64,000 bases of DNA. It comes from a phage. The notes below the pieces were generated by a model, which saw only the letters and a program-made list of their open reading frames with translations, was not told the origin of the DNA and did not search any database. Numbering within the stretch: position 1 is the first letter of the stretch; every line of letters starts with the position of its first letter. Shown in pieces: positions 30,416 through 46,475 of the stretch. A program made the position numbers and the translations under genes. The stretch is from assembly GCA_019326865.1 (NCBI GenBank), contig GCA_019326865.1_4101.1. The stretch is one strand, 5' to 3'.

Positions 30416-30424
30416 TTAAAAGAT

Positions 30425-30450
30425 AAAGGGAGCCTTAGCTCCCTTTTTTT
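30425..30450. terminator. bidirectional terminator between gp46 and endo VII-like genes
   Basis: AAAGGGAGC-ctta-GCTCCCTTT then T7. Confidence 0.75.
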
Positions 30451-30926
30451 ACATCAACCATATTTAATTTACCGTCCTTAATCAGCTTTCTAGCTTGTTT
30501 TGCACGAGTAGAAGTGTTACTGCCAGGGACAACTCCGAACCCTTCCAGAATCTCGTTTTGCTGCGTTGCTGGGAGCCTTTTAAATTTATTAGTATCCACT
30601 GTTAGTGCCGTGTGATGTATAACTTGCTCTTCTGGTGGAATATTATTGTTCTTTTCAAGGTAGTCAGCAAGGTTGCGTAGTACTTCATGTAATGGCTTAT
30701 CTGTTAAATGACTAAGACAGCGTTTAAATGAATTTGCAACCCTTCCTTCCCATCCATTCACCTCATTTTGAAGAACCTGTCTACAATGTTGATTTCCACC
30801 ATGATAGTGATCCAGTACTGGTTTAGTTATTTTTATGCCTATGATGGGGTCAATGCCATTTTGTTTCTTTAGCAATTCATTTCGATAGTTTGCAGCATCC
30901 TTACTATCTTTTAATCTTTTTTTCAT
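30435..30926 (-). CDS. endonuclease VII-like Holliday-junction resolvase (163 aa)
   Basis: LDHYHGGNQHCRQVL...NGWEG resembles the T4 endo VII LDHDH...CN.CN..EG region as recalled; stop codon sits in the loop of a bidirectional terminator. Confidence 0.55.
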   Translation of the reverse strand: MKKRLKDSKDAANYRNELLKKQNGIDPIIGIKITKPVLDHYHGGNQHCRQVLQNEVNGWEGRVANSFKRCLSHLTDKPLHEVLRNLADYLEKNNNIPPEEQVIHHTALTVDTNKFKRLPATQQNEILEGFGVVPGSNTSTRAKQARKLIKDGKLNMVDVKKGS

Positions 30927-31018
30927 AATTCCTCACCAAACTATTTGTCATCACAATATTTATAGATTAGTTATTTGCAATATTTTAAGTACTTAATTAA
31001 TATTTTATAAAAAAATGT

Positions 31019-31046
31019 GAGACAACTTTAAAGTTTGTGCTATAAT
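31019..31046 (+). promoter_or_regulatory. sigma70-type early promoter driving non-coding island
   Basis: GAGACA-N16-TATAAT preceded by GTGC. Confidence 0.5.
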
Positions 31047-31526
31047 ATTTGTTGTAGTAATGACAATCCTGTTGAATGCAGAAATGCATATAAATTAGAA
31101 CCTGATCCTATCGAAAATGTAGATGGCAGATGAGCAGTTCAACAGTGCGATGAGCAAAAGAAACCCGTTAGATGTGGGCATAGTTTGAACCCCTCACGGC
31201 AATGCGGCTCAATAAAGAACTCCGATAAGCATACAGAGAGTTCCTAGATAGACATATAAGGATCGCACCTTACCAGATTTGCTAAGGGAGTTTATTAAGT
31301 GATTTTTAATAAACAGCCTGAAGTTTGATTGTATAGACTTTCAGGTGAGTGTCAGGATGATTAAGACTGACGACCGTTGCATATGACCGTGATAGGGAGA
31401 AACCGAGCAACCCGCTTCCGTTTGCGATTGATCTTTTTACAATATAGATCCGTCCAAAATTCACGATACAATAAATGCTGAAACCATCAGCGTCAAGAAA
31501 TAGAGACTTCATTGTCTCTTTTTTAT
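31047..31526 (+). ncRNA. candidate non-coding RNA locus
   Basis: Early-type promoter at 31019-31046, hairpin plus T-run at 31503-31526, no ORF with RBS in between, locally higher GC with complementary segments; structure not computed. Confidence 0.25.
31503..31526 (+). terminator. rho-independent terminator ending non-coding island
   Basis: AGAGAC-ttcatt-GTCTCT then T5. Confidence 0.55.
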
Positions 31527-31732
31527 TGTCTTCATTCCCCTGCGGGGGGATGAAAATGTCCTCAACAAATCCCGTCAAGTATTAAATCTTTTAAAGTTCT
31601 TTATAATTAATTTAATGAAATGAATATGAGTTACGTAGTAACGAATATTCTTCAGCTAACGAATGAAATGAGTTAGATGAATCCAATAATATTAAAATTA
31701 ATTCTTCCATAATTCAAATAATTCTGTAATTT

Positions 31733-31763
31733 AATGAAAAAAAACCAGCAACAATGTGCTGGT
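31733..31763 (-). terminator. rho-independent terminator after 69-aa ORF
   Basis: ACCAGCA-acaatg-TGCTGGT with 8-9 nt T-run on minus strand. Confidence 0.6.
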
Positions 31764-31772
31764 TATATGGGA

Positions 31773-31982
31773 TTAGTGCTTCTCGTTTTGTTTTTTAATT
31801 TTTTTATTAAAAGACTTAACTAACAAGTCTCTATCTATTAATGGCATATTAAGAAGTGTTCCGTAATCAATATTATCCATATATACAGAACACTCCATCA
31901 GTGCATTTTTGATTTCGGACTTATTCAGTTCTATCTCCTTTAAAACTTCTTGTATTTCTTCAGGAGATGACTGGAGAAGCAT
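31773..31982 (-). CDS. hypothetical protein (69 aa)
   Basis: ORF with TAATG stop/start overlap with upstream gene; followed by hairpin plus T-run terminator. Confidence 0.4.
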   Translation of the reverse strand: MLLQSSPEEIQEVLKEIELNKSEIKNALMECSVYMDNIDYGTLLNMPLIDRDLLVKSFNKKIKKQNEKH

Positions 31983-32818
31983 TACTCGAAAAAATGACTA
32001 GGATCATATTTTAGTCCATCAATTTCCCATTGATGATTACATCCATCACATTCAACTTCCATACTATGTGAAACTCCAATTTCAAGTACTTCATCCATTT
32101 TTTCACGAATTAGTTTAAGAACTCCTTTTGATTGTTGACCAAGCCATTCATTAATGAATTCTTTTTCAACTACTTCATCGCCATCTGGAGTGATGATTTT
32201 TGCAATAACTCCACCAATCATATCAAAGTTTAGTTGTGCCATATTTTCAAACACTTCAGAAAATATTTTTACTTTTTCCTCTTGTTCAATCTCAGCAGTT
32301 TCTAGAAACTTAGTTTTCTGCTGCTCACTGAACATACGCTCAGCAAACGATGAATATTCTTTCCATGTTAGTGGTCTAAACTCTAAACGTAGTCCATTAT
32401 CTAAATCAATAGATGGGATTTCTTCGAATGCTTGTGCAGTTTCAAGAAGATATGATAGATTACGTTCAAAACGACCTTCTTTTTCACATTCAGGACATAC
32501 AGCGTTAATATCATATGTTTCTTCTTTAGATGCAACTTTAATAGCAATAAGAAGCATTTCAACGTCATTTACATATAACTCATCAGCATCAATAACATTA
32601 GGAACACAGTTTTCAATGACACGTGATACTGCATCGCCGTTTAGTAACATATCTGGTGTATTGAGTGTCATTTCATCACGTGCACTACGTGCACAAACGC
32701 CACATTTGACACCTTTTGGACCTAAAACTCCGTCTTTATAAGGAATAATTCCGTTACTAACTAATTTTGTACTGATCTCTTCAATTTTAGTGTACTTAGC
32801 AAGTGGATTCATAGCCAT
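31982..32818 (-). CDS. acidic zinc-ribbon protein, late gene of unknown function (278 aa)
   Basis: Three CxxC pairs (CGVC, CPEC, CDGC); GGAG RBS; late-promoter-like boxes upstream. Confidence 0.5.
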   Translation of the reverse strand: MAMNPLAKYTKIEEISTKLVSNGIIPYKDGVLGPKGVKCGVCARSARDEMTLNTPDMLLNGDAVSRVIENCVPNVIDADELYVNDVEMLLIAIKVASKEETYDINAVCPECEKEGRFERNLSYLLETAQAFEEIPSIDLDNGLRLEFRPLTWKEYSSFAERMFSEQQKTKFLETAEIEQEEKVKIFSEVFENMAQLNFDMIGGVIAKIITPDGDEVVEKEFINEWLGQQSKGVLKLIREKMDEVLEIGVSHSMEVECDGCNHQWEIDGLKYDPSHFFE

Positions 32819-32909
32819 TTTTGTTAAATCTCCATGTAATAAATGTGTTTATAGTATTTATGAACTCAATAAAGATCAAATAAACCATTTTTTATAATCA
32901 CAATAGTTT

Positions 32910-32917
32910 TATAAATA
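32910..32917 (+). promoter_or_regulatory. T4-type late promoter (TATAAATA)
   Basis: Exact box ~33 nt upstream of ATG 32950. Confidence 0.5.
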
Positions 32918-32949
32918 TTTCTATAATACATTTATTAAAAGGGAATGTT

Positions 32950-35154
32950 ATGGCTGGAAATACAAGTGATTACCTACTCCAGCAGTTGGTTAATCAAACT
33001 AAAGATAACAACGATAGTTTGAGTGCTATACGTGAGTTATTGGCTGAAAATATAAAAAATGACAGAAAGAAGTCTGGTTCTAAAAGTGGAAAACGCAATA
33101 GTAGCAATTCATCAAGTACTGGAAATCGTGGTTCACGAACTAGTAACAAGAGTGCTGATGATAAAGAATTTGGTAAAATATTCAAATCATTATCATCGGA
33201 AGTATCAAATGTTGGTAAAACTATGATGAGCACTTCTGCAAATGTTAGTAATGTTGTCAATTCAATGGGAATGAGTGCATCTTCATTTGCTGGAACATTG
33301 TCAATGATTCCTGGTCCTGTTGGTGCAGCAGCAACTGCTTTTAAATTGGTCGCTGACGTTGGTATGGCAGTATATAATGTATTAAACGCACAACTTGAAG
33401 TTTATAATAGAATAAACAGTGCTGGTGTTGCCCTATCTGAAGGTTATGGTTCCATATTAAAAGGTGCAGGTGCATCAATGATGAGTGTTGATGCATTTGG
33501 TGAAGCATTACAAACACATAGTTCTGTTGTTGCACAATTGGATGGAGCATATGGTGATGGTGTTTCCACCTTTGGTAAATTATTGGGTACTGTACAACAG
33601 GCACAAAATCAATTAGGCTTATATGGGGTATCACAAAAAACACTAACTGATTTAACTGCACGTAATATTAAATTCCAAAAGCAATTTGGTGGAAGAGAAA
33701 TGTTACGTAGTATGGATCAAGCAAAAAGTACTGAACAGTTTGTCATGAGCATGACTAAGTTCAGTAAAAGTATGGGTGAGTCAGTTGATGCACTATTAAA
33801 TAAAACACAAAACTTAGATAAATCATTAGATACACGTTCAATGCAAATAGCATTACAGAACTATTCTGGGTTATCAGGTAAAGCAGCAGTCGAAACGTCA
33901 AAAGCATTTAACGAAGCTGCTGCGAGTATGGGTGATGTAGGTGCAGATTTCCTACGTTTAATTTCACATCGTTTAACCATAGGTGGTGTACCAGATGATT
34001 TATTGACTCCAGTACTTAATCAATTTGCTGACTTAGGTGAGAACTTGGTACGTAGTGGTGTTACTGATTCGCAAGAAATTCGTCGCCAGCAGATAGAATT
34101 TGTTAAAAAGAACAAAGAATTAATAAAGCAAGATTTATTACATCAGATTAATTTAGGAAACACTACTGCTGCAATCTTCAACCAACAACTGCTTGATATG
34201 GAAGCTGCGATAAACGATCCTAAGAGTCAACCAGCAGATAAACTAACACAATTCACTGATAGATTCAATAGATGGATTAGTAAAGAATTTTCTGCACCAT
34301 TTAATAAAATGTACGCAGATACTCAAAATTCTATTGCCGATTACCTTACTGATATTGCTGATCGAACCGATGGTGCATGGGAGTTTATTGGTCAGTTAGC
34401 ACTTGATGGGTTTGGTTTAGTTCCAATTGCGAAAGATGCAGTTGCGTATTTGGATAGGATTGGCGGTGAGTTTGAGCAGTGGTTAGACGGTTTAGGTACT
34501 GAAATTTTTGGTAGTGGATACAATAAAGTTTCAGAATCATTTAATAATTTCATGAATAACTTAATGGATTTACCTGGTAAATTATGGGATTCAGTCAAAG
34601 GTTGGTTTGGTGGTTCAAGTGATAAAGTAAAAGTTGATAATAACCCTGTTACTGATGGTGCTGAAAAAGTTAACAGCTACTTCGAAGAAAAAATGAATTC
34701 ATTTGGTGATTATATTTCTAATTCATTTGATCATTTTTTAAAATGGAATTCAAGCAGGAACTTCAAACAGCCCAAACCATTAGATGAATCTGTAGCAGAA
34801 AAACTTATTAGTAGTGGTCTTGAAAATAAACCAAGTGCAACTGCTAGAATAGAAAAATCTGAACATGTTGCACCTTATGTTACTATTACTCCTAAAACAT
34901 TCGATAAATCAGCATGGGGTCCGAATGAACCACCGATTCAAGCACAACCTGACGATTATGAGTCAATGAAAGCGATGATAAATAATGGTAGTAGTATGGC
35001 AAATGCTAATAATAATGCCACAATTTCAGAAGACATGAAAGAATTACTTAAAAAACTTGCTGATGTTAACGAGCAATCCCTATCTGCTGTACAACAGACA
35101 AATAACTATCTAAGAACTATCTCTGAAAACACTCAAGGTGAGAGAAACAGTTAA
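32950..35154 (+). CDS. virion protein, possibly tail tape-measure-like (734 aa)
   Basis: TATAAATA late promoter at 32910-32917; Ser/Lys-rich low-complexity N-terminus then Ala/Gly/Ser-rich region; function is a guess from composition and position. Confidence 0.35.
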   Translation: MAGNTSDYLLQQLVNQTKDNNDSLSAIRELLAENIKNDRKKSGSKSGKRNSSNSSSTGNRGSRTSNKSADDKEFGKIFKSLSSEVSNVGKTMMSTSANVSNVVNSMGMSASSFAGTLSMIPGPVGAAATAFKLVADVGMAVYNVLNAQLEVYNRINSAGVALSEGYGSILKGAGASMMSVDAFGEALQTHSSVVAQLDGAYGDGVSTFGKLLGTVQQAQNQLGLYGVSQKTLTDLTARNIKFQKQFGGREMLRSMDQAKSTEQFVMSMTKFSKSMGESVDALLNKTQNLDKSLDTRSMQIALQNYSGLSGKAAVETSKAFNEAAASMGDVGADFLRLISHRLTIGGVPDDLLTPVLNQFADLGENLVRSGVTDSQEIRRQQIEFVKKNKELIKQDLLHQINLGNTTAAIFNQQLLDMEAAINDPKSQPADKLTQFTDRFNRWISKEFSAPFNKMYADTQNSIADYLTDIADRTDGAWEFIGQLALDGFGLVPIAKDAVAYLDRIGGEFEQWLDGLGTEIFGSGYNKVSESFNNFMNNLMDLPGKLWDSVKGWFGGSSDKVKVDNNPVTDGAEKVNSYFEEKMNSFGDYISNSFDHFLKWNSSRNFKQPKPLDESVAEKLISSGLENKPSATARIEKSEHVAPYVTITPKTFDKSAWGPNEPPIQAQPDDYESMKAMINNGSSMANANNNATISEDMKELLKKLADVNEQSLSAVQQTNNYLRTISENTQGERNS

Positions 35155-35165
35155 GGACGAAAATA

Positions 35166-36905
35166 ATGAGTTGGAAACGACATATGACAGTGGGAAGGTC
35201 AAAGCTATCGACTATCCCAAATCAGTCCAATAATAGCAATAAATCAACAGGAACAAAAACCAATTTTGCTTCCTATCTTCCAGTTGTATATAATGGATTG
35301 GCAAACCGTACTGAACGTTATAGTCAGTATGAGCAAATGGACCAAGACCCTGAAATTAGAACTGCATTGAATATCATTGCTGACTTTTGTACTCAAAGTA
35401 CTGAAGATTATGGTTTACCATATAAAATAAAATACAAAGATGATATTGGAGATACTGAAGTAACAACGATTGAAGATCGTTTAGATGCATGGACTGAACA
35501 AAATGATTTTAAAACACGAATGTATGAGATTGTACGTGGTCTTTTGAAATATGGGGACCAGTTTTTTATCCGAGATCCAGAAACATTTGATTGGTATTGG
35601 GTGAGTCCAAAAAACGTCGAACAAGTATTTGTTAATGAAGCAACTGGGAAAACACCAGTAATTTATTACATACGTGATGTATCATTAAACTTAAAAGATA
35701 AAGTTTATAGTAATCTACAAGTTGGATTCGATAAAACCGCTTATCCTGGTGCTATTCCTACAACAATGGGTGGTGGTGGTTCTGTCGCTGCTGGCGGTGC
35801 ATCTGGATTCACTAGTCAAGGTAATACTGCTGACCCTTTCAGCACTAATGGTCAATTAGATGTTATTCCTGTTGGTGCAGAACACGTAATCCATTTGACG
35901 CTAAATACTGGACAAGATGGAGTATGGCCTTTTGGTACTAGTATACTTGAGGATGTATTCAAAGTTTATAAACAAAAAGAACTTCTAGAAGATAGTATCA
36001 TAATTTATCGTGTACAACGTGCTCCAGAACGTCGTGTTTTTAAAATCGATGTTGGTGATATGCAAGCACATCAGGCAATGGCTTATGTGGAAAGATTTAA
36101 AAACGAAATTCATCAGCGTAGAATACCTTCAAACAAAGGTGGAAGTACTTCTTTAATGGATGCAGCATATAATCCTTTAAGTATATTAGAAGATTACTTT
36201 TTCCCACAAACTTCTGAAGGTCGTGGTTCGGATGTTCAAACTTTACCAGGTGGTGATAACTTAGGGCAAATTGATGACTTACGCTACTTCAATAATAAAT
36301 TGATACGTGGTCTTCAAATACCAGCTTCCTATCTACCACAAGGTCCAGATGATGGTGGTGTTTCATTATTTGGTGATGGTGCAACACAAGCTATGGCAAG
36401 TGAATTACGATTCAATAATCAATGTATGCGTTATCAGCGTTTAGTTGCGAAACATTTTGATGCTGAATTCAAAAGATTTATGGTAAAAAATGGATATAAT
36501 ATTAGTACTTCATCATTTGAAGTCATTATGAATCCACCAATTAACTTAGCTTCTTATCGTAAAGCTGAATTGGATGCTAAATTAATTAATACATATCTAC
36601 CTCTTAATGATTTACCTTATATGGCTAAACAAACAATTCTTGAGAAAATGGGCTTTTCTAAAGCAGATATTGTTAAGAATGAACAAATGTGGTTACAAGA
36701 GAATCCACAAGATGGTTCTCAACCTTCTAGTGGTGAAGAAGATTCTGCTGGATTACAGTCTGTTGGTATTGATGCACCAAATGACCCAGGTATGGATCTT
36801 GGTATTGACGGTGATGGTAATTTAGAAAGTGCTGATTCCGAATATCAAGAACAACAAAGTGGAAGTGATGGTTTCAATCCTAATAATTTAGGCAATTCTT
36901 TTTAA
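35166..36905 (+). CDS. portal vertex protein gp20-like
   Basis: LEDSIIIYRVQRAPERRVFKIDVG and TLPGGDNLGQIDDLRYF match T4 gp20 segments ([41 protein letters not shown]) as recalled. Confidence 0.85.
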   Translation: MSWKRHMTVGRSKLSTIPNQSNNSNKSTGTKTNFASYLPVVYNGLANRTERYSQYEQMDQDPEIRTALNIIADFCTQSTEDYGLPYKIKYKDDIGDTEVTTIEDRLDAWTEQNDFKTRMYEIVRGLLKYGDQFFIRDPETFDWYWVSPKNVEQVFVNEATGKTPVIYYIRDVSLNLKDKVYSNLQVGFDKTAYPGAIPTTMGGGGSVAAGGASGFTSQGNTADPFSTNGQLDVIPVGAEHVIHLTLNTGQDGVWPFGTSILEDVFKVYKQKELLEDSIIIYRVQRAPERRVFKIDVGDMQAHQAMAYVERFKNEIHQRRIPSNKGGSTSLMDAAYNPLSILEDYFFPQTSEGRGSDVQTLPGGDNLGQIDDLRYFNNKLIRGLQIPASYLPQGPDDGGVSLFGDGATQAMASELRFNNQCMRYQRLVAKHFDAEFKRFMVKNGYNISTSSFEVIMNPPINLASYRKAELDAKLINTYLPLNDLPYMAKQTILEKMGFSKADIVKNEQMWLQENPQDGSQPSSGEEDSAGLQSVGIDAPNDPGMDLGIDGDGNLESADSEYQEQQSGSDGFNPNNLGNSF

Positions 36906-36926
36906 ACATAAATAACAGTGTATAAG

Positions 36927-36952
36927 AATGAGGGTTTATATTAGCCCTCATT
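36927..36952 (+). terminator. hairpin after portal gene (weak or partial terminator)
   Basis: AATGAGGG-N10-CCCTCATT; downstream U-tract poor. Confidence 0.35.
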
Positions 36953-36978
36953 TATAATGCATATTTCAAGGAGATTGA

Positions 36979-37206
36979 ATGTTAAAGGACATCTTTGAAT
37001 CTAGCAGTGATTCAATGTACGACCCTGAAGATGATCAGAACGTATATAAAATTACTGACTCCAGAAAACCAAAACTAACATTACAAGTATTAAATAACTT
37101 AAGAAAGTATCGTGAATTTAAAGCACATGAGGAACAACGCCGCAAAAATGTGGTTGCTGTTGTTTATGCATCTACCCCAACAGGTGATGATTCTGGATTA
37201 ATGTAA
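36979..37206 (+). CDS. small acidic prohead protein (gp67-position, 75 aa)
   Basis: Position between portal and prohead protease genes; acidic composition. Confidence 0.35.
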   Translation: MLKDIFESSSDSMYDPEDDQNVYKITDSRKPKLTLQVLNNLRKYREFKAHEEQRRKNVVAVVYASTPTGDDSGLM

Positions 37207-37258
37207 ATCAAAAATCGCACTTTTTTAAGCTTTTAAAAAAGGTGATTTTATTCAGTAC

Positions 37259-37307
37259 TAAATAATATCATACTTTATACGAATATAATATATCTATGGA
37301 GGATATA
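37259..37307 (+). promoter_or_regulatory. conserved leader cassette shared with capsid gene
   Basis: AAATAATATCATACT...ACGAATATAA...TCT..GGAGGATATAATG, near-identical to 40005-40058. Confidence 0.5.
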
Positions 37308-38138
37308 ATGGCGAATTTAAAACTACTACAAGAAGCAATTGCGGCGTTTGCAAATGGTGAACAAGATATTGCTGATAAAAAAATGCGTAAGTATTTTGTT
37401 GAGCAAGCACAAGAAATTAACAAGAAGCTAGAAGAAAGCATGGAAGATGAAGACGAGGAAGTTGAAGTCGAAGATGAAGAACAGCTTGACGAAGATTTTG
37501 ATGTGCAACCAGATGCTGGTCTAAATGCTGAAATCGAATACACACTTGGTGAAGAAGATGAAAGTGCAGAAGATGAAGTTGAGTTTTCTGCTGATGCTGA
37601 TGGTGACGGTGAAGATGATGTTGATGTGGAAGTGAAGGCAGATGCTGATGTTCCTTCTGAAGATCAATGGGAATCAATTCAGGATGCTTTCCGTGGTTTA
37701 CAACAAATGTTTGATGAAATTGGTGATGGCGAAGTTGACCTAGATTCCGATGAAGAAGTTGAAGATAGTGAAGAAGAAGTCGGTGTTGACGGGGAAGACG
37801 AATTTGCTGACGTTGAATTCGGTGATGAAAAAATTGGTGAATCCTTCAAACTAGAAAAAGTTGCACCTGTCGACAAGAAAGAAAAAGCTGGTACTCATAC
37901 TAAATCCCCAGTAGCACCTGAAGCAAAATCCCCAGTAGCAGGAGCAGAACCAGTTAAATTTGCAAAGAAAACTGATCAAGCACCACTAGTAGACCTAGAT
38001 GATAAATCTGTTCTACCAAAAGATAACCTTGATCTTGGTAAAAATGCTCGCGGTGAAATGAAAGATGTAAAAGCACCAAAAACTACTGCATCAAATTCTA
38101 AATCACCACTAAGTAAAGCACAACCTAAAGTAAAATAA
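37308..38138 (+). CDS. highly acidic prohead core/internal protein
   Basis: Long Asp/Glu runs (EDEDEEVEVEDEEQLDEDF), basic Pro/Lys-rich tail; ATG 37308 with GGAGG RBS; shares a conserved leader with the capsid gene. Confidence 0.5.
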   Translation: MANLKLLQEAIAAFANGEQDIADKKMRKYFVEQAQEINKKLEESMEDEDEEVEVEDEEQLDEDFDVQPDAGLNAEIEYTLGEEDESAEDEVEFSADADGDGEDDVDVEVKADADVPSEDQWESIQDAFRGLQQMFDEIGDGEVDLDSDEEVEDSEEEVGVDGEDEFADVEFGDEKIGESFKLEKVAPVDKKEKAGTHTKSPVAPEAKSPVAGAEPVKFAKKTDQAPLVDLDDKSVLPKDNLDLGKNARGEMKDVKAPKTTASNSKSPLSKAQPKVK

Positions 38139-38158
38139 ATAAATGAAAGGAGATCATT

Positions 38159-38782
38159 ATGAGTAGTATGATACGTGAATGGTCTTCATTCAATGATTCT
38201 AAAGTTGTTTTGGAACATCGTGATAATGGGTTTGGTGGGCGTGATTGTTACCTTCGTGGTATTGCAATTCAAGCAGACCAACGCAATTTGAACGAGAGAA
38301 TTTACCCTTTATCTGAAATTACAAGAGCAGTAAATAATATGAATCAGCGTTTAGCTAAAGGTGAAAGTATTCTTGTTGAATGTGACCATCCAGAAACACT
38401 GACTATTAATTTAGACCGAGTAGCAGCAATGATTACTAAGGTTTGGATGGAAGGTGCAAATGGTATGGCTGAAATCAAATTACTTGATACTGCACATGGT
38501 CAGAATATCCGTAAAATGCTAGAGGCTGGTGTAAAACTTGGTGTAAGTTCTCGCGGTTCCGGTAACGTAGATTATAATGGAATAGTTTCTGATTTTGAAA
38601 TTATCACTATTGATATTGTTGCTCAACCTAGTGCTCCAGAAGCATACCCAACAGCGGTATTTGAATCTCTGATGAGTAAGTACGGATCACCTTGTAATGG
38701 TTCTAAAAAAATCACTGAATCTAAAAAAGTAAATAATTTAGATTCTGAAATATACGATTTTTTCAAGAAATTAAAAGGTTAA
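38159..38782 (+). CDS. prohead core protease gp21-like
   Basis: NERIYPLSEI, VECDHPE, GVSSRGSG and IVAQPSAPEA motifs resemble T4 gp21 as recalled; sits before scaffold and capsid genes. Confidence 0.8.
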   Translation: MSSMIREWSSFNDSKVVLEHRDNGFGGRDCYLRGIAIQADQRNLNERIYPLSEITRAVNNMNQRLAKGESILVECDHPETLTINLDRVAAMITKVWMEGANGMAEIKLLDTAHGQNIRKMLEAGVKLGVSSRGSGNVDYNGIVSDFEIITIDIVAQPSAPEAYPTAVFESLMSKYGSPCNGSKKITESKKVNNLDSEIYDFFKKLKG

Positions 38783-38793
38783 CATTTTAAAAA

Positions 38794-38822
38794 TATAAAT
38801 ATCTGTATGTTGAAGTACAGAT
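38794..38822 (+). promoter_or_regulatory. T4-type late promoter plus leader hairpin for scaffold gene
   Basis: TATAAATA followed directly by ATCTGTA-N8-TACAGAT inverted repeat. Confidence 0.5.
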
Positions 38823-38848
38823 ATTTCAGTACTTAAAGGAGAGAACGA

Positions 38849-39964
38849 ATGTCTAAATTAGAAAAGCTTCTAAAAGAATCATCTCTTTCTGATGAGGCAA
38901 AACAGCTAATTCAGGAAGCATGGAATGAAGAAAAGAACACACTAGCCGCAGAGATGCGTGAAGAAATGAAAGGCCGTTATCAGCAAGATTTGGCTGAACT
39001 AACCGAAGGATTGAACACTATGGTTACTCAAGTCATTGCTGAAGAAATGGGTGCTGTATATGAAGAGAAAAAACGTCTTGTTGAAGATCGTGTAACTCTA
39101 CGTAAAACACTAAGTAATTTCTCTGCGTTTTCAAATTCTGTTTTGGCTGAAGAAGTTAAACAAATGCGTAAAGAGCGTAAGCATCTACATGAATGCATGG
39201 GTAAATTCGTTAATTTTTCTAACGGTATCCTAGCAGAAGAACTAAAAGAATTCCACACAGAAAAACGTCAACTGGTTGAAGCTCGTGTAAAATTACTTGC
39301 AGAAGGTTCACGTCAAATTGCTGAAGCTCGTAATAACTTCATCAAACGTACATCTGAAAGTGCTGCTAAATATATTGCAGAGACAACACAGAAGAATCTA
39401 TATGCGTTAAAACAAGATCTAGTGGAAGCGAAACAAAATATGTTTGGTCGTAAAATCTTTGAAGCATTTGCTCAAGAATTTAATGTCAAACAATTCAATG
39501 AAAATTCATTGCTACGTTCACTAACTGAAACAATTAAATCTAAAGAAGATGAAATTGATCAAGTTAAGCAAGAACTACATGAAACTGTTAATGCGGTCAA
39601 AGCTGCTAAAACTAAACTACGTATTATGGAAGATGCACAAGCCCGTAATGCGATTATGTCTGAACTAGTAAAACCACTAACTGCACAGCAAAAACAAATT
39701 ATGGAATCCCTTCTAGCAACTTCACCTACTGAAAAGCTTAAAGAAGATTTCAGTAAGTACCATAAGTCAGTACTTAACGGTACTAAAGTAAATGAATCTG
39801 CTACCACTCGTCAAGCAGTTCAGTCTTCCGCTAAGAAAACTCTTGCAGAAGGTAAAGTGATCACTGGCAACCGTCAGGCTATTGTTGAAAGCGAAGAAAT
39901 GACCGCTGACGATATGGCATTCCTAAAAGAACTCGATGTTCTTTCGGGTATCAATAAAAAATAA
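38849..39964 (+). CDS. prohead scaffold protein gp22-like (coiled-coil)
   Basis: Heptad-rich alpha-helical composition; position between protease and capsid genes; TATAAATA late promoter upstream. Confidence 0.6.
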   Translation: MSKLEKLLKESSLSDEAKQLIQEAWNEEKNTLAAEMREEMKGRYQQDLAELTEGLNTMVTQVIAEEMGAVYEEKKRLVEDRVTLRKTLSNFSAFSNSVLAEEVKQMRKERKHLHECMGKFVNFSNGILAEELKEFHTEKRQLVEARVKLLAEGSRQIAEARNNFIKRTSESAAKYIAETTQKNLYALKQDLVEAKQNMFGRKIFEAFAQEFNVKQFNENSLLRSLTETIKSKEDEIDQVKQELHETVNAVKAAKTKLRIMEDAQARNAIMSELVKPLTAQQKQIMESLLATSPTEKLKEDFSKYHKSVLNGTKVNESATTRQAVQSSAKKTLAEGKVITGNRQAIVESEEMTADDMAFLKELDVLSGINKK

Positions 39965-40002
39965 ACATTTTAAAGCATTTTAATAATCAATTTTTTCAGT
40001 TC

Positions 40003-40010
40003 TATAAATA
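40003..40010 (+). promoter_or_regulatory. T4-type late promoter (TATAAATA) for major capsid gene
   Basis: Exact box 46 nt upstream of ATG 40056. Confidence 0.6.
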
Positions 40011-40055
40011 ATATCATACTGAAAAACGAATATAACATCTTTAAGGAGATATATA

Positions 40056-41231
40056 ATGTCACAACTACTAAATGAATCCAAATGGGTAGCAGTAAAAGAG
40101 AAACTAGTTGAAGGTCTACAGGGTACTCGTAAGTCTGTAATGGAAACTGTTCTTGATAACCATCGTAAAGTTATGCTAACTGAATCCGCAACTTCTGGTG
40201 CAACTACCGCTGGTAATATCGCTACACTAAACAAAGTGATTCTACCAATTATGCGTCGTGTAATGCCAACTGTTATTGCTAACGAAATTATCGGTGTTCA
40301 GCCTATGACTGGTCCAGTCGGTCAAATTCACACCCTACGTGTACAATATGCTGATAATGCACCTGGTGTTATCGCTGGTGAAGAAATGCTTTCTCCATAC
40401 AAAATCGCTAAATCCTACTCTGGTGAACTAAATTCTGATAACAGCAATCCTCAAGCTGCTCCTACTAGCCAACTAGAAGGTACTATGGGTCGTCGCGTTA
40501 ACATCCGTATTCTACGTGAAACTGTTGAAGCGAAATCTCGTCGTCTATCTGCACGTTGGACTGTTGAATCTGCACAAGATGCTCAATCCCAACATGGTGT
40601 TGACGTTGAAGCAGAACTAATGGCTGCAATCGCTCAAGAAGTTACCGTAGAAATCGACCAAGAGCTACTAAGCCGTCTACGTGCACTACCAGGTGCTGCT
40701 GCTGTAACTTATGACCAATCTAAAGTTACTGGTGTTGCAACCTTCGTTGGTGATGAGCACGCTGCTCTAGCAACTCTAATTAACCGTCAAGCAAACGAAG
40801 TTGCTCGTCGTACTAAGCGTGGTGCTGCAAACTGGGCTGTTGTTTCCCCAACTGCACTAACCATTCTACAATCTGCTACTACTTCTAGCTTTGCACGTAC
40901 CACTGAAGGTACTTTCGAAGCACCAACTAACGTTAAGTTTGTAGGTACTCTAAACAGCACTATGCGTATTTTTGTTGATACTTATGCAAGTGATTCAGAA
41001 GATATTCTAATTGGTTATAAAGGTAATGCAGAAACTGATGCTGGTGTGTTTTATTGCCCATACATCCCACTAATGGCGTCCGGTACTGTAATGGACCCTA
41101 ACACTGGAGAACTCGTAACCACTTTCTTAACCAGATACGGGTACGTTCAGTTGACCGATAGCACCAGTTCACTAGGTAACGCTGCTGACTACTACAGCAA
41201 AATCGCTATCAAAAACGTTACTTTCATGTAA
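40056..41231 (+). CDS. major capsid protein gp23-like (391 aa)
   Basis: IANEIIGVQPMTGPVGQIHTLRVQYA, VEAKSRRLSARWTVESAQD and FVDTYASDSEDILIGYKGNAETDAGVFYCPYIP match T4 gp23 segments as recalled; TATAAATA late promoter, GGAG RBS, strong terminator downstream. Confidence 0.9.
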   Translation: MSQLLNESKWVAVKEKLVEGLQGTRKSVMETVLDNHRKVMLTESATSGATTAGNIATLNKVILPIMRRVMPTVIANEIIGVQPMTGPVGQIHTLRVQYADNAPGVIAGEEMLSPYKIAKSYSGELNSDNSNPQAAPTSQLEGTMGRRVNIRILRETVEAKSRRLSARWTVESAQDAQSQHGVDVEAELMAAIAQEVTVEIDQELLSRLRALPGAAAVTYDQSKVTGVATFVGDEHAALATLINRQANEVARRTKRGAANWAVVSPTALTILQSATTSSFARTTEGTFEAPTNVKFVGTLNSTMRIFVDTYASDSEDILIGYKGNAETDAGVFYCPYIPLMASGTVMDPNTGELVTTFLTRYGYVQLTDSTSSLGNAADYYSKIAIKNVTFM

Positions 41232-41275
41232 TATTGATTTTTGTAGAATTTATAGAATAAAAAACTTTTATACTA

Positions 41276-41301
41276 GGGACTCTTCGGAGTCCCTTTTTTT
41301 T
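41276..41301 (+). terminator. rho-independent terminator after major capsid gene
   Basis: GGGACTC-TTCG-GAGTCCC then T8. Confidence 0.85.
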
Positions 41302-41324
41302 GGTTTTTATATAACTAAAAGATC

Positions 41325-41353
41325 TTGACAGCACTTAACAATTGTAGTATCAT
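41325..41353 (+). promoter_or_regulatory. sigma70-like promoter for homing-endonuclease-like gene A
   Basis: TTGACA-N17-TATCAT just downstream of capsid terminator. Confidence 0.4.
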
Positions 41354-41387
41354 ACGTGTAAATAAAGAAAAGAACTCGGAGAAAATC

Positions 41388-42983
41388 GTGTTAGAAGAAA
41401 TCAAGAAGTTTTTATCAGAGAAAAATGTTCGTGGTGTTAAATCTGCTCTGCAAGCAAAATCTGTATACATTGAATTCCTGCGAGAGATGTTTGGTGATAT
41501 CGATCTTAATGAAATGATTTATATGGTATTGAATGATATTACTTCAGTGCCGAATGCTGAATGTGGTGACAAAGCTAAGTTTATAAGTATTACCGAAGGA
41601 TATTCTTACAAGTGCAATAAACCATTTCAAGGAAAAGGAAAATGCCTTATCTGTTGCTCCGCAGTTGCTAGGAAACGTAAAGAAACTTACAAAGAAAAAA
41701 CTGGTTATGATAACCCGGCACAGAATCCAGAAATTCAAAAGAAAATAGGGTATACCAATGAACAACGTTATGGCACTCGTATTGCTCAACAATCTGAACA
41801 AGTAAAGCAGAAATCAATAGAAACTAATATCAAAAAGTATGGCGTTGTTCATCCATCACAGTTGGAAAGTAATAAACAGCAACGTTTACAAACTGTACAA
41901 GAAAAGTATGGTATCAATAATGTATGGCAACTTAATAAAGGTCTTAGTGCACGTTATGAACAGTTTAAAACACGATTTGAACAGGATGGTAAATTTACTC
42001 TTTTAAGTGATGAATCCCATTATGATAATAGCAATGACGCAACTCATGCAATCATGCACTGGAAATGTAATGAATGTGGTAATGAGTTTGATAAAGTTGC
42101 TCTTTGCTTACGCTGCCCTAAGTGTGAACCATATTCATCCAGTACTGAAGAAGTTAATCTTTATAATTACATTACCTCTATCTATAGTGGTGTTGTTATT
42201 CAAAACAGCCGCAACATAATCAAAGGTAATGAAATTGATATTTTCATCCCAGAACTGAAACTTGGTATTGAGTTCAATGGTGAGTACTGGCATCGTGATG
42301 AAGTTCGTGGTAAAGACTATCATCAATCCAAATACTTCAAAATGAAGGAAGCAGGATACAAACTTATCACTATCTATAGTAATGAATGGTCAAATAAAAC
42401 TGAAATTGTTAAGAATCGTTTGAAAAGTTTGATTAGTGTGGATAGTAAAATCTATGCTCGTAAGTGTGAAGTTAGATTGGTTGTACATGAAGAATGTGAT
42501 AAATTTTTGTATGAACATCATATTCAAGGACCATGCCAATCATCAATCAAACTTGGACTTTACTATAATGATGATTTGGTTGCTTTGATGACATTTGGTG
42601 CACCACGATTTAACAAGCAGTATGAATATGAATTACTGCGTTATTGTTCTAAAGGAACAGTTGTTGGGGGTGCATCGAAACTGTTAAAACATTTTGAACG
42701 TATGTATCTTCCTAAATCTCTTCTTTCATACGCCGATATGAACTGGAGTACTGGTAATTTGTATGAAAAAATTGGTTTTACTTTAGAAGAAGTAACTCAA
42801 CCTGGTTATTTTTACTATGATAGAAAAAACGAAGTTGTTTATTCTCGCCATCAATGCCAAAAACAAAAACTTATTAAAAAATATAATTTTGATAGTTCTA
42901 TGACAGAGAAGGAAATGACAAAAGAATTAGGATACTTTAGAATCTATGATTGTGGTAACTTAGTTTATAAAAAGATTTACTAA
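41388..42983 (+). CDS. homing-endonuclease-like protein A: Cys-rich zinc-ribbon regions, tandem repeats, Vsr-like PD-(D/E)xK nuclease core
   Basis: IDIFIPELKLGIEFNGEYWH resembles the Vsr/DUF559 active-site region; repeats of form G..(N/H)P.Q......K........YG; own sigma70-like promoter; track start 41325 is TTG, GTG at 41388 has GGAG RBS; paralog at 62327. Confidence 0.55.
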   Translation: MLEEIKKFLSEKNVRGVKSALQAKSVYIEFLREMFGDIDLNEMIYMVLNDITSVPNAECGDKAKFISITEGYSYKCNKPFQGKGKCLICCSAVARKRKETYKEKTGYDNPAQNPEIQKKIGYTNEQRYGTRIAQQSEQVKQKSIETNIKKYGVVHPSQLESNKQQRLQTVQEKYGINNVWQLNKGLSARYEQFKTRFEQDGKFTLLSDESHYDNSNDATHAIMHWKCNECGNEFDKVALCLRCPKCEPYSSSTEEVNLYNYITSIYSGVVIQNSRNIIKGNEIDIFIPELKLGIEFNGEYWHRDEVRGKDYHQSKYFKMKEAGYKLITIYSNEWSNKTEIVKNRLKSLISVDSKIYARKCEVRLVVHEECDKFLYEHHIQGPCQSSIKLGLYYNDDLVALMTFGAPRFNKQYEYELLRYCSKGTVVGGASKLLKHFERMYLPKSLLSYADMNWSTGNLYEKIGFTLEEVTQPGYFYYDRKNEVVYSRHQCQKQKLIKKYNFDSSMTEKEMTKELGYFRIYDCGNLVYKKIY

Positions 42984-43000
42984 AATACGGGAGAATACGG

Positions 43001-43351
43001 ATGTTAACTGTATACAAATTTAACAAAGAAGAGTACTTAAAGAGTCAGTACTCAAATATAGAAATAAATGTTCCTTATGGTACGTTAGTTGGATATGATG
43101 AAGCCACTGAAACATTGTATTATAATGATGATAGATTGGATTATAGTTTAGATTCTTTCATAGAAGATATACTTAATACACAAACTGAAGATATGTTGTA
43201 TGAAGAATACATCGATCATTATAGAGAACGTATGTCGGTGCTGCATTCTGATGCTCCTGTACTAAACATAGCACAAGAACCATCGGAATTTCAGCCACAT
43301 AATCCTTTTCAACGTTTAATTGATATTGGTTTAAAATTCACTATTAGTTGA
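43001..43351 (+). CDS. hypothetical protein (116 aa)
   Basis: ORF with GGAG RBS. Confidence 0.5.
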   Translation: MLTVYKFNKEEYLKSQYSNIEINVPYGTLVGYDEATETLYYNDDRLDYSLDSFIEDILNTQTEDMLYEEYIDHYRERMSVLHSDAPVLNIAQEPSEFQPHNPFQRLIDIGLKFTIS

Positions 43352-43390
43352 TAGATAAATATCTCCATATTAATGATGGAGATTGAATCT

Positions 43391-43699
43391 ATGTCACAGA
43401 TATGTTATGTTATAATAAACTCTGCATGGCCTGACTATGTTAAGATTGGTTTCACTTCTAAATCTGAAATGACAGAGCGTTTGAGAACGTATCAGACAGC
43501 TACCCCGTTTCGTGATTTTGAAGTTTATCATGAAGTTCACTTTGAAGACGCACGTTTAGCTGAAAAAGAGATACATAAAAGGCTTAAACAAATGAATGCA
43601 ACTAGACAACCAAACACGGAGTGGTTTAAAATGTCTAAAAAAATAGCAGCAAACATCATTGATTCTGTGTGGGATGATATGGATAACGACTTGCTATAG
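43391..43699 (+). CDS. T5orf172 / GIY-YIG-like domain protein
   Basis: CYVIINSAWPDYVKIGFTSKSEMTERLRTYQT...EWF matches the T5orf172 pattern as recalled; 8-bp inverted repeat ATCTCCAT/ATGGAGAT overlaps the RBS. Confidence 0.55.
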   Translation: MSQICYVIINSAWPDYVKIGFTSKSEMTERLRTYQTATPFRDFEVYHEVHFEDARLAEKEIHKRLKQMNATRQPNTEWFKMSKKIAANIIDSVWDDMDNDLL

Positions 43700-43739
43700 G
43701 AATAAATATAGTATATATTAATCATAAAGGGATTTATAC

Positions 43740-45335
43740 ATGAGCATAAGTTTTAATAACCCATTGGATACAATGACCAGTACTGGTGCTAATGGTTCTT
43801 TAGAATTAATAGTGCTTGGTGGTTCACCAACTAATCCAAGACCTATTCGTTTTAATTCGTCATCAGTCATTATACCAGTAAAAACATTACCTACTGGTGA
43901 GCAAGGTGCAATGGTTTTTGATAGAAATGAATTAGTTTTGAAGTATCATAACGGTACAAGTTGGGTTGCAGTATATGATACTGATACTATTTTGGAACCA
44001 ATTAGAATTTCATTGGATGAAGTAAATCGAAAATTAAATTTAAAAGTAGAAACCGTATCATATAGTAGCAGTGCTGTTCCAAGTGCAAGTATAAGTGGGA
44101 CTAATTTAAATATTGTATTCCCTACTGTAGCTACTGGCGGTTCAGGACCAACTGGACTTTACACTTCACTAAAACCTGGTGCTATTACACAATACGCATT
44201 GACATCTGGACAAAACGTTGCTAGTATACGTGAACAAATGTCGGGTCAAACCAATGGACAAAATGGTCGCAATGGCTCACAAGGTTCTCCGTGGAAAACA
44301 TCTGATGGTTGGTGTTTTGCTGATGGGATGTGGTGGCAATGGGAAGGCGAAAATGGTACAATTACTAAACAAGTACCAAACCTTAACAGAAACGCGTATT
44401 TAAAAGGAATATCCACATCAGGTGTAACTCAAATTGATGGTGTTATTAGTAGTAGTGGAAACATTAGCGGAACTGTTTTAAGTGTAGCACAGTTGCCATC
44501 TCACTCATTCAGTTTTAGTGGGACTACTAGTGCTGCTGGTCGTCATGGTCATAGTCAAGCACTAAAAGGTAATGACCGTAGTGGTCTAAATGCAATAACG
44601 TCGAGTAGAGATAATGGTATTCCAACTGTAATCAGTAATATTAATGAAGCACCTGACCACGTACACTCATTTAGTGGAAACACAAACACACTTGGTGGAA
44701 ATCAGCCACATTACCATAGCATTAGTAACGTTGATGTGGAACACTTTAACGTTGCATACCTATATAATATTGCTGAATCTAACGTTGCATTGAGCGAAAA
44801 AGTTGCAAATAAACGTTATGTACTGAAAACTGGTGATACAATGACTGGCTCATTGACTATTGCAAATAGTGCATCCATACAGTCAAATGATACATCATTA
44901 GTTCTTTATTTCCGTAATGCAAGTGGGGGCGAACGTGCAGCGGTATATCATAACTCATCAAACAACACCTTGAGATTACGTTCTGGTGGTGCAGAAGTAG
45001 CTGTAAACTCTTCGGGTAACTTGTCTGCTCCATCTTTAACTGTTTCTAATAACTCAGCTACTGTTGGTGGCAAAAATATTGTTCGTTCGATTAACGGAAA
45101 TGCAGCAGATGGTAATGGTAATGTGAATATTAAAATTGAAACTGGTGCAATTACTGCTATGAAATTTGGTGGTAAACAACAACTTAGTGTTTCTGATAAC
45201 ATATATCGTTCAGGATGGGTAATCACTGGTTGGGCAAATGGTGATAAAAAAGAACTACGTGGTGCTGGTTATTGGTCTGCTCCATTGTATTATTTGATTG
45301 GTAGTTCTTGGTACATCATCCCAACCGATAATTAA
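43740..45335 (+). CDS. tail fiber protein with HxH receptor-binding-type C-terminal region
   Basis: Gly/Ser/Thr/Asn-rich composition; PSHSFSFSGTT, GRHGHS, PDHVHSFSG, QPHYH motifs resembling tail-collar/short-fiber tip domains. Confidence 0.6.
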   Translation: MSISFNNPLDTMTSTGANGSLELIVLGGSPTNPRPIRFNSSSVIIPVKTLPTGEQGAMVFDRNELVLKYHNGTSWVAVYDTDTILEPIRISLDEVNRKLNLKVETVSYSSSAVPSASISGTNLNIVFPTVATGGSGPTGLYTSLKPGAITQYALTSGQNVASIREQMSGQTNGQNGRNGSQGSPWKTSDGWCFADGMWWQWEGENGTITKQVPNLNRNAYLKGISTSGVTQIDGVISSSGNISGTVLSVAQLPSHSFSFSGTTSAAGRHGHSQALKGNDRSGLNAITSSRDNGIPTVISNINEAPDHVHSFSGNTNTLGGNQPHYHSISNVDVEHFNVAYLYNIAESNVALSEKVANKRYVLKTGDTMTGSLTIANSASIQSNDTSLVLYFRNASGGERAAVYHNSSNNTLRLRSGGAEVAVNSSGNLSAPSLTVSNNSATVGGKNIVRSINGNAADGNGNVNIKIETGAITAMKFGGKQQLSVSDNIYRSGWVITGWANGDKKELRGAGYWSAPLYYLIGSSWYIIPTDN

Positions 45336-45347
45336 TAGGAAAATAAT

Positions 45348-45890
45348 ATGCAAATTTATAAAGGATGGAAAGCTTATAAACCTAATCGTACTGAGGAAAA
45401 TGCAAATGGGATAGATGCAGGTGCTCTTTTCATTCAAGATGAAAATGGCAATGATTGGTATGATTTTATGAAATCACATGCTGATCGTAAAGACTTTTAT
45501 GTATTAGTTGATGAAGTAACTTCAGTTGTGATTGGATATGGTTATTCAGTTGTGGAAACATTTCCAATTGAAATGACATTGTGTATAGTAGAAGATATTA
45601 ATGAACTACCCGACGGTTTTTTAGAAAATCCAAAATACTTTGAACTCAAGAACGATAAGATAGTTTCTAGCAATGTTCTTAAGAAAGTAGAACTTGGATA
45701 TGCACTTGAATATGAGTTGGATTGGGTAAATTCAGAAATTAGTGTTCTAGCTGATGCTGAATTGTTTGAAGATCCTGAAGATCTTCCACCAATTCAAGAA
45801 CGTCTATTAAAACTTCGTCGTTATCGTTATGAACTCTCAAAAGTTGATCCTGAAGTAACTCCTGATTATGTTATACCAGCACGTCCTTAA
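45348..45890 (+). CDS. putative tail fiber assembly/chaperone protein
   Basis: Immediately downstream of the fiber gene; size typical; no diagnostic motif. Confidence 0.3.
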   Translation: MQIYKGWKAYKPNRTEENANGIDAGALFIQDENGNDWYDFMKSHADRKDFYVLVDEVTSVVIGYGYSVVETFPIEMTLCIVEDINELPDGFLENPKYFELKNDKIVSSNVLKKVELGYALEYELDWVNSEISVLADAELFEDPEDLPPIQERLLKLRRYRYELSKVDPEVTPDYVIPARP

Positions 45891-45900
45891 GGATTGAATG

Positions 45901-45934
45901 AAAACTGCTGCAAATTGTTTGTGGCAGTTTTTTA
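45901..45934 (+). terminator. rho-independent terminator after fiber/chaperone genes
   Basis: AAAACTGC...GCAGTTTT imperfect stem then T-rich run. Confidence 0.5.
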
Positions 45935-46047
45935 TTTTAATAGTTTATAGTTAAAAGAGTGTCTTGTAGAACAACTATCTTGTTTAACTTCATGCTAACC
46001 TATACAATGTTGCACCTGCCGTGTCAGAAAATTCATAGGATTTTTTT

Positions 46048-46075
46048 GGGACACTTTAAGAAGAACTGATATAAT
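46048..46075 (+). promoter_or_regulatory. sigma70-type early promoter
   Basis: GGGACA-N16-TATAAT (TGa). Confidence 0.5.
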
Positions 46076-46077
46076 AT

Positions 46078-46109
46078 AGTCATTCCACAATGTTCCTTAT
46101 GGAATGACT
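46078..46109 (+). promoter_or_regulatory. perfect 10-bp inverted repeat at transcript start (operator or 5' hairpin)
   Basis: AGTCATTCCA-N12-TGGAATGACT beginning 3 nt after the -10 hexamer. Confidence 0.4.
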
Positions 46110-46149
46110 ATATTTGATTATATAATTTATCACATGGAGATATACAAAA

Positions 46150-46452
46150 ATGGCTAAATCTAAAAAAGAAGTTAAAGTAGAAATTCGTGATCTAAACGAT
46201 GAACAACGTAAACGCCTCGGAGATGCACTTAATAACATTGTTGTACAACTTACTTTCATTGATGATACCAAAGCATCCTTGTCAGATTTTGTTTCTAGTA
46301 TTTCAGATGAACTAGGTATCAATGCATCTGATATCAAGCAAGCTGCACAGCGTATGTATAAAGGTGATTACTTTGATAAACAAAGCAAACTAGATAACAT
46401 CGAAACTATCCTAAGTGTTACTAATAATCTACCACAAGCAGATGATTACTAA
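46150..46452 (+). CDS. hypothetical early protein (100 aa)
   Basis: ORF downstream of GGGACA-N16-TATAAT promoter and a 10-bp inverted repeat; terminator downstream. Confidence 0.5.
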   Translation: MAKSKKEVKVEIRDLNDEQRKRLGDALNNIVVQLTFIDDTKASLSDFVSSISDELGINASDIKQAAQRMYKGDYFDKQSKLDNIETILSVTNNLPQADDY

Positions 46453-46475
46453 TTTCTAATAAAATATATTAAATG

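Follow-up and report, generated by a model that had tools for sequence, protein, structure and literature searches.

T4-type gene blocks in a non-T4 arrangement in a genome segment of a Rak2-like jumbo phage

We analysed a 64,000-nucleotide stretch of phage DNA (GenBank assembly GCA_019326865.1, contig GCA_019326865.1_4101.1; hereafter the window), in which positions 35166-41231 hold a block of head genes: a portal gene, genes for proteins of 75 and 280 amino acids (aa), a prohead protease gene, a scaffold-like gene and a major capsid gene. The 46 open reading frames (ORFs) of the window were compared with PHROGs and, by tblastn, with the complete T4 genome, and ten of them also with Pfam (Table 1). 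Judged from their sequences, the portal, protease and capsid proteins are true homologues of their T4 counterparts, at 28-34% identity, and with the large terminase TerL they supply the T4 head and packaging core (gp20, gp21, gp23 and gp17), recognised at tblastn E values of 1e-13 to 8e-33 and by PHROG assignment. The order corresponds to T4 20-67-68-21-22-23, the core and scaffold genes being placed by position only. Neither the 75-aa nor the 280-aa gene gave a sequence match in the T4 genome by tblastn; in Pseudomonas phage PA5oct (Arenbergviridae) the genes at these positions bear virion mass-spectrometry notes, and tblastn homology was confirmed only for the 75-aa one. Homology to T4 was likewise not found for the 371-aa scaffold-like gene. 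Its product has a helical, charged composition, as has T4 gp22 (A+L+Q+E+K 50% in each; G+P 3.5% against 4.1%), and its PA5oct homologue is without the virion mass-spectrometry note that the neighbouring genes bear, which fits a scaffold role.

Nucleotide comparison identifies the window as a segment of a known E. coli jumbo phage type of ~350 kb, genus Asteriusvirus (121Q/PBECO4/UE-S1 group), within the 'Rak2-like' clade. The best blastn match to the head block was Escherichia phage UE-S1, at 99.2% identity, and ~25 further E. coli and Salmonella jumbo phages, among them PBECO4, 121Q, phAPEC6, slurp01 and SP27, matched it over its full length at 92-95%. Outside the head block, the window gave a similar picture. 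Aligned directly, the window and UE-S1 are collinear in two pieces, 10-45124 at 97.4% and 46131-62245 at 98.1%, and their portal proteins are 100% identical. PBECO4 and 121Q are 94% identical to the head block in DNA, and along the window their identity to it is 89.9% in a 25-kb stretch and 93-94% in further stretches of 6-17 kb; these long stretches of Asteriusvirus-level identity were measured over the 64-kb window only. Database records place the relatives in the Caudoviricetes, genus Asteriusvirus, outside the Straboviridae. Gene content and order are the same in UE-S1, PBECO4, 121Q and the window, apart from a few features. Compared with UE-S1, the window has one homing endonuclease gene more, of 1.68 kb and located between uvsX and uvsY, and it differs in the tail-fibre tip and assembly gene (45125-46130); compared with PBECO4, it additionally has an endonuclease gene after the capsid gene and an intein in TerL. 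The source phage is a close relative of UE-S1, not UE-S1 itself. No tRNA genes were found within the window, and no Rfam family reached its gathering score there, so that it holds no recognised group I intron or non-coding RNA.

The initial annotation had described T4 core modules that keep their internal order but are rearranged relative to one another, and as a description of gene positions this proved accurate. Portal, core, protease, scaffold and capsid genes follow one another as described above. The genes for gp55, gp47 and gp46 are grouped in T4 order and orientation at 26393-30415. The gp6 homologue directly precedes the gene for a giant 3331-aa virion protein that was said to hold the gp7 position, and the positional wording was apt: the giant protein (phrog_10938) and T4 gp7 (phrog_964) have no family in common. 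The giant-protein gene is also present in Klebsiella phage vB_KleM-RaK2 (RaK2) and in PA5oct. TerL, placed ~20 kb from the portal, starts 18.9 kb past the end of the portal gene; gp32 and uvsX, reported as adjacent, are 70 nucleotides (nt) apart; and the polymerase gene does stand between the tail fibre genes and the gene labelled clamp-like. In all, there are five multi-gene clusters whose order and relative orientation are those of T4.

Replication and recombination genes of T4 type (gp43, gp45, gp32, gp46/47, uvsX and rnh) are present in the window, with gp45 recognised by predicted fold, and uvsY follows uvsX in relatives, according to the PBECO4 annotation. Direct tblastn against the T4 genome gave no match for the gp6-, gp53-, gp55-, gp26-, gp49-, gp32- and gp15-like genes, and these assignments rest on common PHROG or Pfam families. 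The GroES-like co-chaperonin (phrog_3188) has no family in common with T4 gp31 (phrog_931) and would be its functional counterpart from a different family.

Table 1. Genes and other features of the window, with the basis of each assignment.
Feature	Position	Strand	Basis or remark
gp15-like tail sheath stabilizer	474-1817	-	phrog_11196 and phrog_227; T4 gp15 matches the same two
Giant 3331-aa virion protein, gp7 position	5742-15737	-	phrog_10938 only; assigned by position
gp6-like baseplate wedge	15793-19254	-	phrog_10646 and phrog_219, E 1e-19; T4 gp6 is phrog_219
gp25-like baseplate wedge	19356-19751	-	phrog_43; tblastn match to T4 gp25 at 115.4 kb
gp5-like hub protein with lysozyme domain	20290-22953	-	phrog_13211; tblastn matches to T4 gp5 lysozyme domain and T4 e
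gp53-like wedge (weak)	25226-25540	-	phrog_7145; phrog_232 only at E 9e-4; T4 gp53 is phrog_232
gp55 late sigma factor	26393-27241	+	phrog_234 and phrog_12791, common to T4 gp55
gp47	27210-28259	+	PHROG; tblastn against T4
gp46	28268-30415	+	PHROG; tblastn against T4; block ends at two-way terminator 30425-30446
Endonuclease VII (gp49)	30435-30926	-	phrog_423, common to T4 gp49
gp26-like baseplate hub	31982-32818	-	phrog_150, E 2e-34, common to T4 gp26
Portal (gp20)	35166-36905	+	phrog_213, E 5e-122; T4 gp20 by tblastn, 28% identity, E 3e-22
75-aa gene, gp67 position	36979-37206	+	phrog_13986; position only
280-aa gene, gp68 position	37296-38138	+	phrog_15696 (virion structural protein); position only
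Prohead protease (gp21)	38159-38782	+	phrog_207; T4 gp21, 29% identity
Scaffold-like 371-aa gene, gp22 position	38849-39964	+	position and composition; TATAAATA 47 nt upstream
Major capsid protein (gp23)	40056-41231	+	phrog_138; T4 gp23, 34% identity, E 8e-33; terminator at 41275-41294
First homing endonuclease gene, free-standing, 552 aa	41325-42983	+	Hef-like/HNH/RB49ORF239c-like; phrog_3339 and phrog_559; after capsid terminator
Tail fibre and tail fibre assembly (Tfa) genes	43740-45890	+	
Family B DNA polymerase (gp43)	46532-49537	+	phrog_262; Pfam DNA_pol_B and exonuclease domain; T4 gp43, 26-28% identity
Predicted two-domain sliding clamp (PCNA/gp45 fold), 243 aa	50089-50820	+	annotated hypothetical in UE-S1, PBECO4 and RaK2
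GroES-like co-chaperonin	51031-51393	+	phrog_3188
RNase H / 5'-3' exonuclease (rnh)	53619-54662	+	phrog_107; T4 rnh, 27% identity
Large terminase TerL (gp17)	55855-58512	+	residues 16-88 and 429-873 match adjoining parts of T4 gp17
TerL intein, 340 aa, LAGLIDADG	56119-57138 (TerL residues 89-428)	+	splits Walker A motif, GK/TT
gp32 single-strand DNA-binding protein	60025-61083	+	Pfam PF08804; phrog_1192, common to T4 gp32
UvsX recombinase	61154-62275	+	
Second homing endonuclease gene, free-standing	62291-63931	+	phrog_3339; between uvsX and uvsY
Intergenic TATAAATA sites	20270, 26306, 30957, 32910, 38794, 40003		genes behind them: stand-alone lysozyme, 262-aa structural gene, endonuclease VII, 734-aa pre-portal gene, scaffold-like gene, capsid gene

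T4 and the window have in common gp20, 21, 23, 17, 43, 46, 47, 55, 49, 25, 26, 6, 5, 15, 32, uvsX and rnh (gp53 weakly), a clamp of the gp45 fold, the internal order of the five clusters and the late-promoter motif TATAAATA. The tblastn identities are nevertheless just 21-34%, and the order between the blocks is not that of T4. In T4, gp17 ends 2.7 kb upstream of gp20, whereas in the window the portal gene comes first and TerL follows 19 kb downstream; gp32 and uvsX are 44 kb apart at nearest in T4 and adjacent here; gp25 and gp6, separated by 32 kb in T4, stand side by side; and gp15, which in T4 belongs to the array 13-14-15-16-17, has its counterpart more than 50 kb from TerL. The window also differs from T4 in having its head and replication genes on one strand, in a genome about twice the size. 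The Straboviridae array 13-14-15-16-17-18-19-20-67-68-21-22-23, intact in T4, does not occur in the window, and by PHROG annotation the neighbourhood of the portal gene is free of sheath and tube genes. Other relatives of T4 have retained more of this array: a KVP40-like Vibrio phage keeps 17-18-19-20-...-23 and an Ackermannviridae phage 14-15-16-17-18-19-20-...-23. Sinorhizobium phage phiM12 (Emdodecavirus), like the window lineage a divergent member of the T4 superfamily, keeps 19-20-x-x-21-22-23 and lacks a terminase gene in the 7 kb preceding its portal gene; it is not a jumbo phage (195 kb), and its portal and capsid proteins are 37% and 42% identical to those of T4, against 20% and 29% for the window.

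The depth of this divergence was evaluated with portal and capsid alignments from seven genomes (the window, RaK2, PA5oct, T4, the KVP40-like phage, the Ackermannviridae phage and phiM12), from which neighbour-joining trees were built and rooted at the midpoint. The portal and capsid proteins of the window are 19-22% and 28-35% identical, respectively, to those of T4, the KVP40-like phage, the Ackermannviridae phage and phiM12, whereas these four are 33-47% (portal) and 36-69% (capsid) identical to one another. Both trees place the window, RaK2 and PA5oct on one side and the other four genomes opposite, so that the marker proteins of the clade do not group with those of T4 and its relatives. 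This bears out the earlier reading of a deep-branching T4-like lineage, which is also the published description: Rak2-like phages have been described as T4-like jumbo phages (PMC6102473), and published portal, capsid and terminase trees agree with a deep placement (PMC6102473, PMC5259590).

These data bear on the possibility that an unrelated jumbo phage gained its T4-type genes piecemeal by horizontal transfer, the resemblance to T4 then being a mosaic. Such an origin would suit the dispersal of the T4 homologues among many genes without a T4 counterpart, and the clade is reported to keep only ~21-23 of the 38 T4 core genes (PMC5259590, PMC3622015), with 21 of 38 counted in phage CBB (PMC5259590) and 15 of 38 missing from RaK2 (PMC3622015). 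It fits poorly with the uniformly low identity, 21-34%, of the ~20 T4 homologues in the window, and with the agreement of portal and capsid in setting the window, RaK2 and PA5oct apart. The five clusters with T4 order and orientation, and functions that span head, baseplate, packaging, replisome, recombination and late transcription together, likewise argue against it, as do the authors of the CBB genome paper (PMC5259590). We consider piecemeal gain very unlikely. It has been proposed that group 2 jumbo phages arose from T4-like predecessors by genome expansion (PMC7824862).

The arrangement of the blocks is not particular to the window. Gene tables of UE-S1, PBECO4 and RaK2 give the same layout as the window in every relative inspected. 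RaK2 (Alcyoneusvirus), grouped with CBB, GAP32, BF and K64-1 among the 'Rak2-like' jumbo phages, belongs to another genus and infects another host, yet 38 of the 46 window proteins match it in the same order and orientation, and every gene from the giant protein to uvsX is in its window place, at 37-82% amino-acid identity (capsid 81%). In CBB, the gene numbers given for six homologues follow the window order (gp25, gp53, gp55, endonuclease VII, portal 252, gp21 255, gp23 257, gp43 263; PMC5259590). PA5oct shares with the window the left 45-kb block, with identities of 23-67% (capsid 67%, portal 42%); the block comprises the giant protein, baseplate genes, 55-47-46, portal, capsid, Hef-like endonuclease and tail fibre. 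To the right of the tail fibre it has NUDIX and gp15-like genes where the window has the polymerase-to-uvsX block, so that, on gene order, at least one further rearrangement separates PA5oct from the window lineage. Collinearity with RaK2, CBB and PA5oct shows that the layout is older than the Rak2-like radiation, and its fixation across the clade makes the difference from T4 an old trait of the lineage.

The initial annotation had also offered extensive rearrangement tied to mobile genes as an explanation, and the window does carry such genes. Two free-standing homing endonuclease genes, paralogues with 35% amino-acid identity, stand at block borders, one after the capsid gene and one after uvsX, and a small GIY-YIG-like gene lies at 43373-43699. 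The first endonuclease gene is present in UE-S1, RaK2 and PA5oct and absent from PBECO4, which has 118 bp in its place; the second, cleanly inserted and 1.68 kb long, is missing from UE-S1 and PBECO4, and its flank at 63930-64000 is 100% identical. TerL is interrupted in frame by an intein, and a close homologue shows the precise uninterrupted site: PBECO4 TerL, of 545 aa, is exactly without the 340 intein residues, and the alignment gives the borders (ARQMGK/ALANN...IPTHN/TTVAAAF). The insert matches the Pfam families LAGLIDADG_3 (E 5e-11), Hom_end (7e-6) and Intein_splicing (0.003, under the family cut-off). Alanine at position 1, a His-Asn end and threonine at +1 fit a putative non-canonical (class-3-like) intein, which would splice out of TerL. 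RaK2 TerL is of intein-bearing size (889 aa), and RaK2 has endonuclease genes after both the capsid gene and uvsX; an intein in the TerL of RaK2 and K64-1 has been mentioned (PMC5259590).

These elements do not explain the layout, since PBECO4, which lacks both endonuclease genes and the intein, and UE-S1, which lacks the second endonuclease gene, have the identical gene order. The insertions are clean, 1.0-1.8 kb long and flanked by collinear DNA, and the far more divergent RaK2 and PA5oct keep the order. In T4, too, gp23, uvsX and gp32 have seg genes as neighbours, with the gene order unchanged, and among the compared relatives none has an altered block order that breaks at the endonuclease genes. 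Recent scrambling of the blocks by mobile genes, be it homing endonucleases, the intein or others, is accordingly highly improbable, and of the two readings offered at the outset only that of a deep-branching lineage stands. By comparison with the relatives, the endonuclease genes and the intein appear as recent, variable selfish insertions in or near highly conserved genes, and not as the cause of the layout. Chimeric misassembly, named beforehand as the outcome that would overturn the observation, has nothing but a priori possibility in its favour and a probability close to nil, because the junctions recur in UE-S1 (one 45-kb and one 16-kb alignment), in PBECO4, 121Q and ~30 other independently sequenced Escherichia and Salmonella phages and in RaK2, and base composition stays uniform along the window (GC 29-38%), without a shift at block borders.

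We next consider the gene at 50089-50820, which the initial annotation had guessed to be clamp-like. Its 243-aa product has no Pfam match and a sole PHROG match, to a family of unknown function. A phmmer search of the PDB returned nothing at E values up to 10, and when a 21-sequence profile was compared with T4 gp45 in hhalign, the probability was 0.4%. In contrast to these sequence searches, an AlphaFold2 model built from the 21-sequence alignment (pLDDT 91, pTM 0.88) matched PCNA over its full length in Foldseek (E 6e-11, TM ~0.7), and the predicted fold has the two tandem beta-alpha-beta clamp domains of a ~230-260-aa protein. The identification as a clamp is thus supported by the modelled fold. 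One 98-aa gene separates it from gp43. This linkage of polymerase and clamp would add a further cluster of T4 type, and it is what speaks for a protein that would form a closed trimeric ring, be loaded by a gp44/62-type loader and bind the polymerase. The genome papers of RaK2 (2013) and CBB (2017) did not detect a gp45 homologue (PMC3622015, PMC5259590), and according to a survey of 2021 a clamp of the PCNA superfamily is typical of T4-related jumbo phages, a statement that may or may not cover this gene (PMC7824862). It is possible, if rather doubtful, that the predicted clamp is the 'missing' gp45 of the Rak2-like phages and, with the gp55 homologue, runs replication-coupled late transcription from TATAAATA at the relocated blocks.

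Signals that could delimit transcription units were located around the blocks. Strong terminator-like hairpins follow gp46 (30425-30446), the capsid gene (41275-41294) and the tail fibre assembly gene (45900-45932), and terminator-like sites number 20 in 26001-46000 against 8.4 expected. Matches to a sigma-70-like promoter were not enriched (75 against 86 expected), and the top match of the scanned 26-46 kb region (11/12, 41325-41353) overlaps the listed start codon of the first endonuclease gene. The T4 late-promoter octamer TATAAATA occurs nine times against 11.4 expected, but six of the nine matches fall between genes, 16-47 nt ahead of a gene on the same strand, namely five structural genes and the gene for endonuclease VII. 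Only 1.8% of positions qualify as intergenic and within 120 nt upstream of a same-strand gene, which gives P ~3e-9 for this placement. Among the genes so preceded, the stand-alone lysozyme gene (19765-20253) heads the gp25/gp6 run and the 262-aa structural gene (25540-26289) heads the baseplate run. Two further matches lie at 15804, up to 66 nt upstream of the giant gene, and at 50821, before a small ORF after the clamp gene. An ATAAATA late-promoter motif is described in CBB (PMC5259590), and a similar motif has been reported for CBB and GAP32.

Together these data support a model, which we hold to be very probably correct, in which this Asteriusvirus segment descends from a remote common ancestor with the T4-type phages, its blocks retained and the order between them an old trait fixed in the clade. 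From that ancestor the lineage would have inherited genes for head, baseplate, packaging, replication, recombination and late transcription, of which the blocks 20-x-x-21-22'-23, 55-47-46, 53...5...25-6-7', 43...45 and 32-uvsX(-uvsY) would survive as operon-like units. Their internal order was presumably kept by co-expression and by joint assembly of the products. The arrangement of the blocks, fixed across the whole Rak2-like clade and different from that of T4, is neither recent nor an artefact, and probably goes with the expansion of the genome to ~350 kb. From the terminators and TATAAATA sites we infer that late transcription proceeds block by block, every block forming a separate unit under the gp55-type sigma factor, with the clamp probably acting as late-transcription co-activator as in T4. 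Independent units of this kind would explain how block order could change without loss of function.

Several points weigh against this model. The genes at the T4 positions of gp67, gp68, gp22 and gp7 have no detectable sequence homology to them, and the gp53 assignment is weak (E 9e-4). The tree placement comes from seven taxa, two proteins, neighbour-joining and a midpoint root, and may be subject to long-branch effects. The total of TATAAATA matches is not enriched; it is only in their placement that they depart from chance, and there the background is raised by the AT-richness of intergenic DNA. Finally, the ancestral order could be that of T4 or that of the window. On the minus strand, 19356-22953 and 5742-19254 encode in succession a spike/lysozyme (gp5-like) protein, gp25, gp6 and a large downstream protein, an order that resembles the V-W-J-I baseplate order of phage P2. 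By this analogy some features of the window layout, such as spike-gp25-gp6-gp7', may be ancestral and those of T4 derived.

Other features of the window were also observed. Local duplication of genes is apparent twice: the stand-alone lysozyme is a paralogue of the C-terminal part of the gp5-like hub protein beside it, both falling in phrog_13211, and the tandem virion proteins at 52157-52846 and 52862-53461 share a family (phrog_9326). At 45125-46130 the C-terminal tip of the tail fibre, the assembly gene and downstream intergenic DNA have no alignable counterpart in UE-S1 or PBECO4 between flanks of 92-98% identity, and by comparison with these genomes the segment looks like a swapped host-range cassette. 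The ~850 bp after endonuclease VII (30927-31772) hold no convincing ORF, only one of 90 aa without a family; no Rfam match, no tandem repeats and only short, chance-level repeats were found there, and UE-S1 annotates a repeat_region at the equivalent place. A 769-aa ClpA/ClpB-type double AAA+ ATPase (phrog_4871) is encoded at 3397-5706, on the strand opposite to two flanking leftward virion-protein genes, and is a known feature of Rak2-like phages (PMC6102473).

That the Rak2-like jumbo phages are distantly akin to T4, with a T4 core gene set that is incomplete and scattered, has been on record since 2013. Here, the window has been identified, the worry of misassembly removed, and the endonuclease genes and the intein revealed as variable passengers. 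The identification of the clamp is the only modestly new item of the analysis. This assignment by fold, for a gene beside the polymerase, could improve the annotation of Rak2-like phages, and it opens a T4-like coupling of replication with late transcription to testing.

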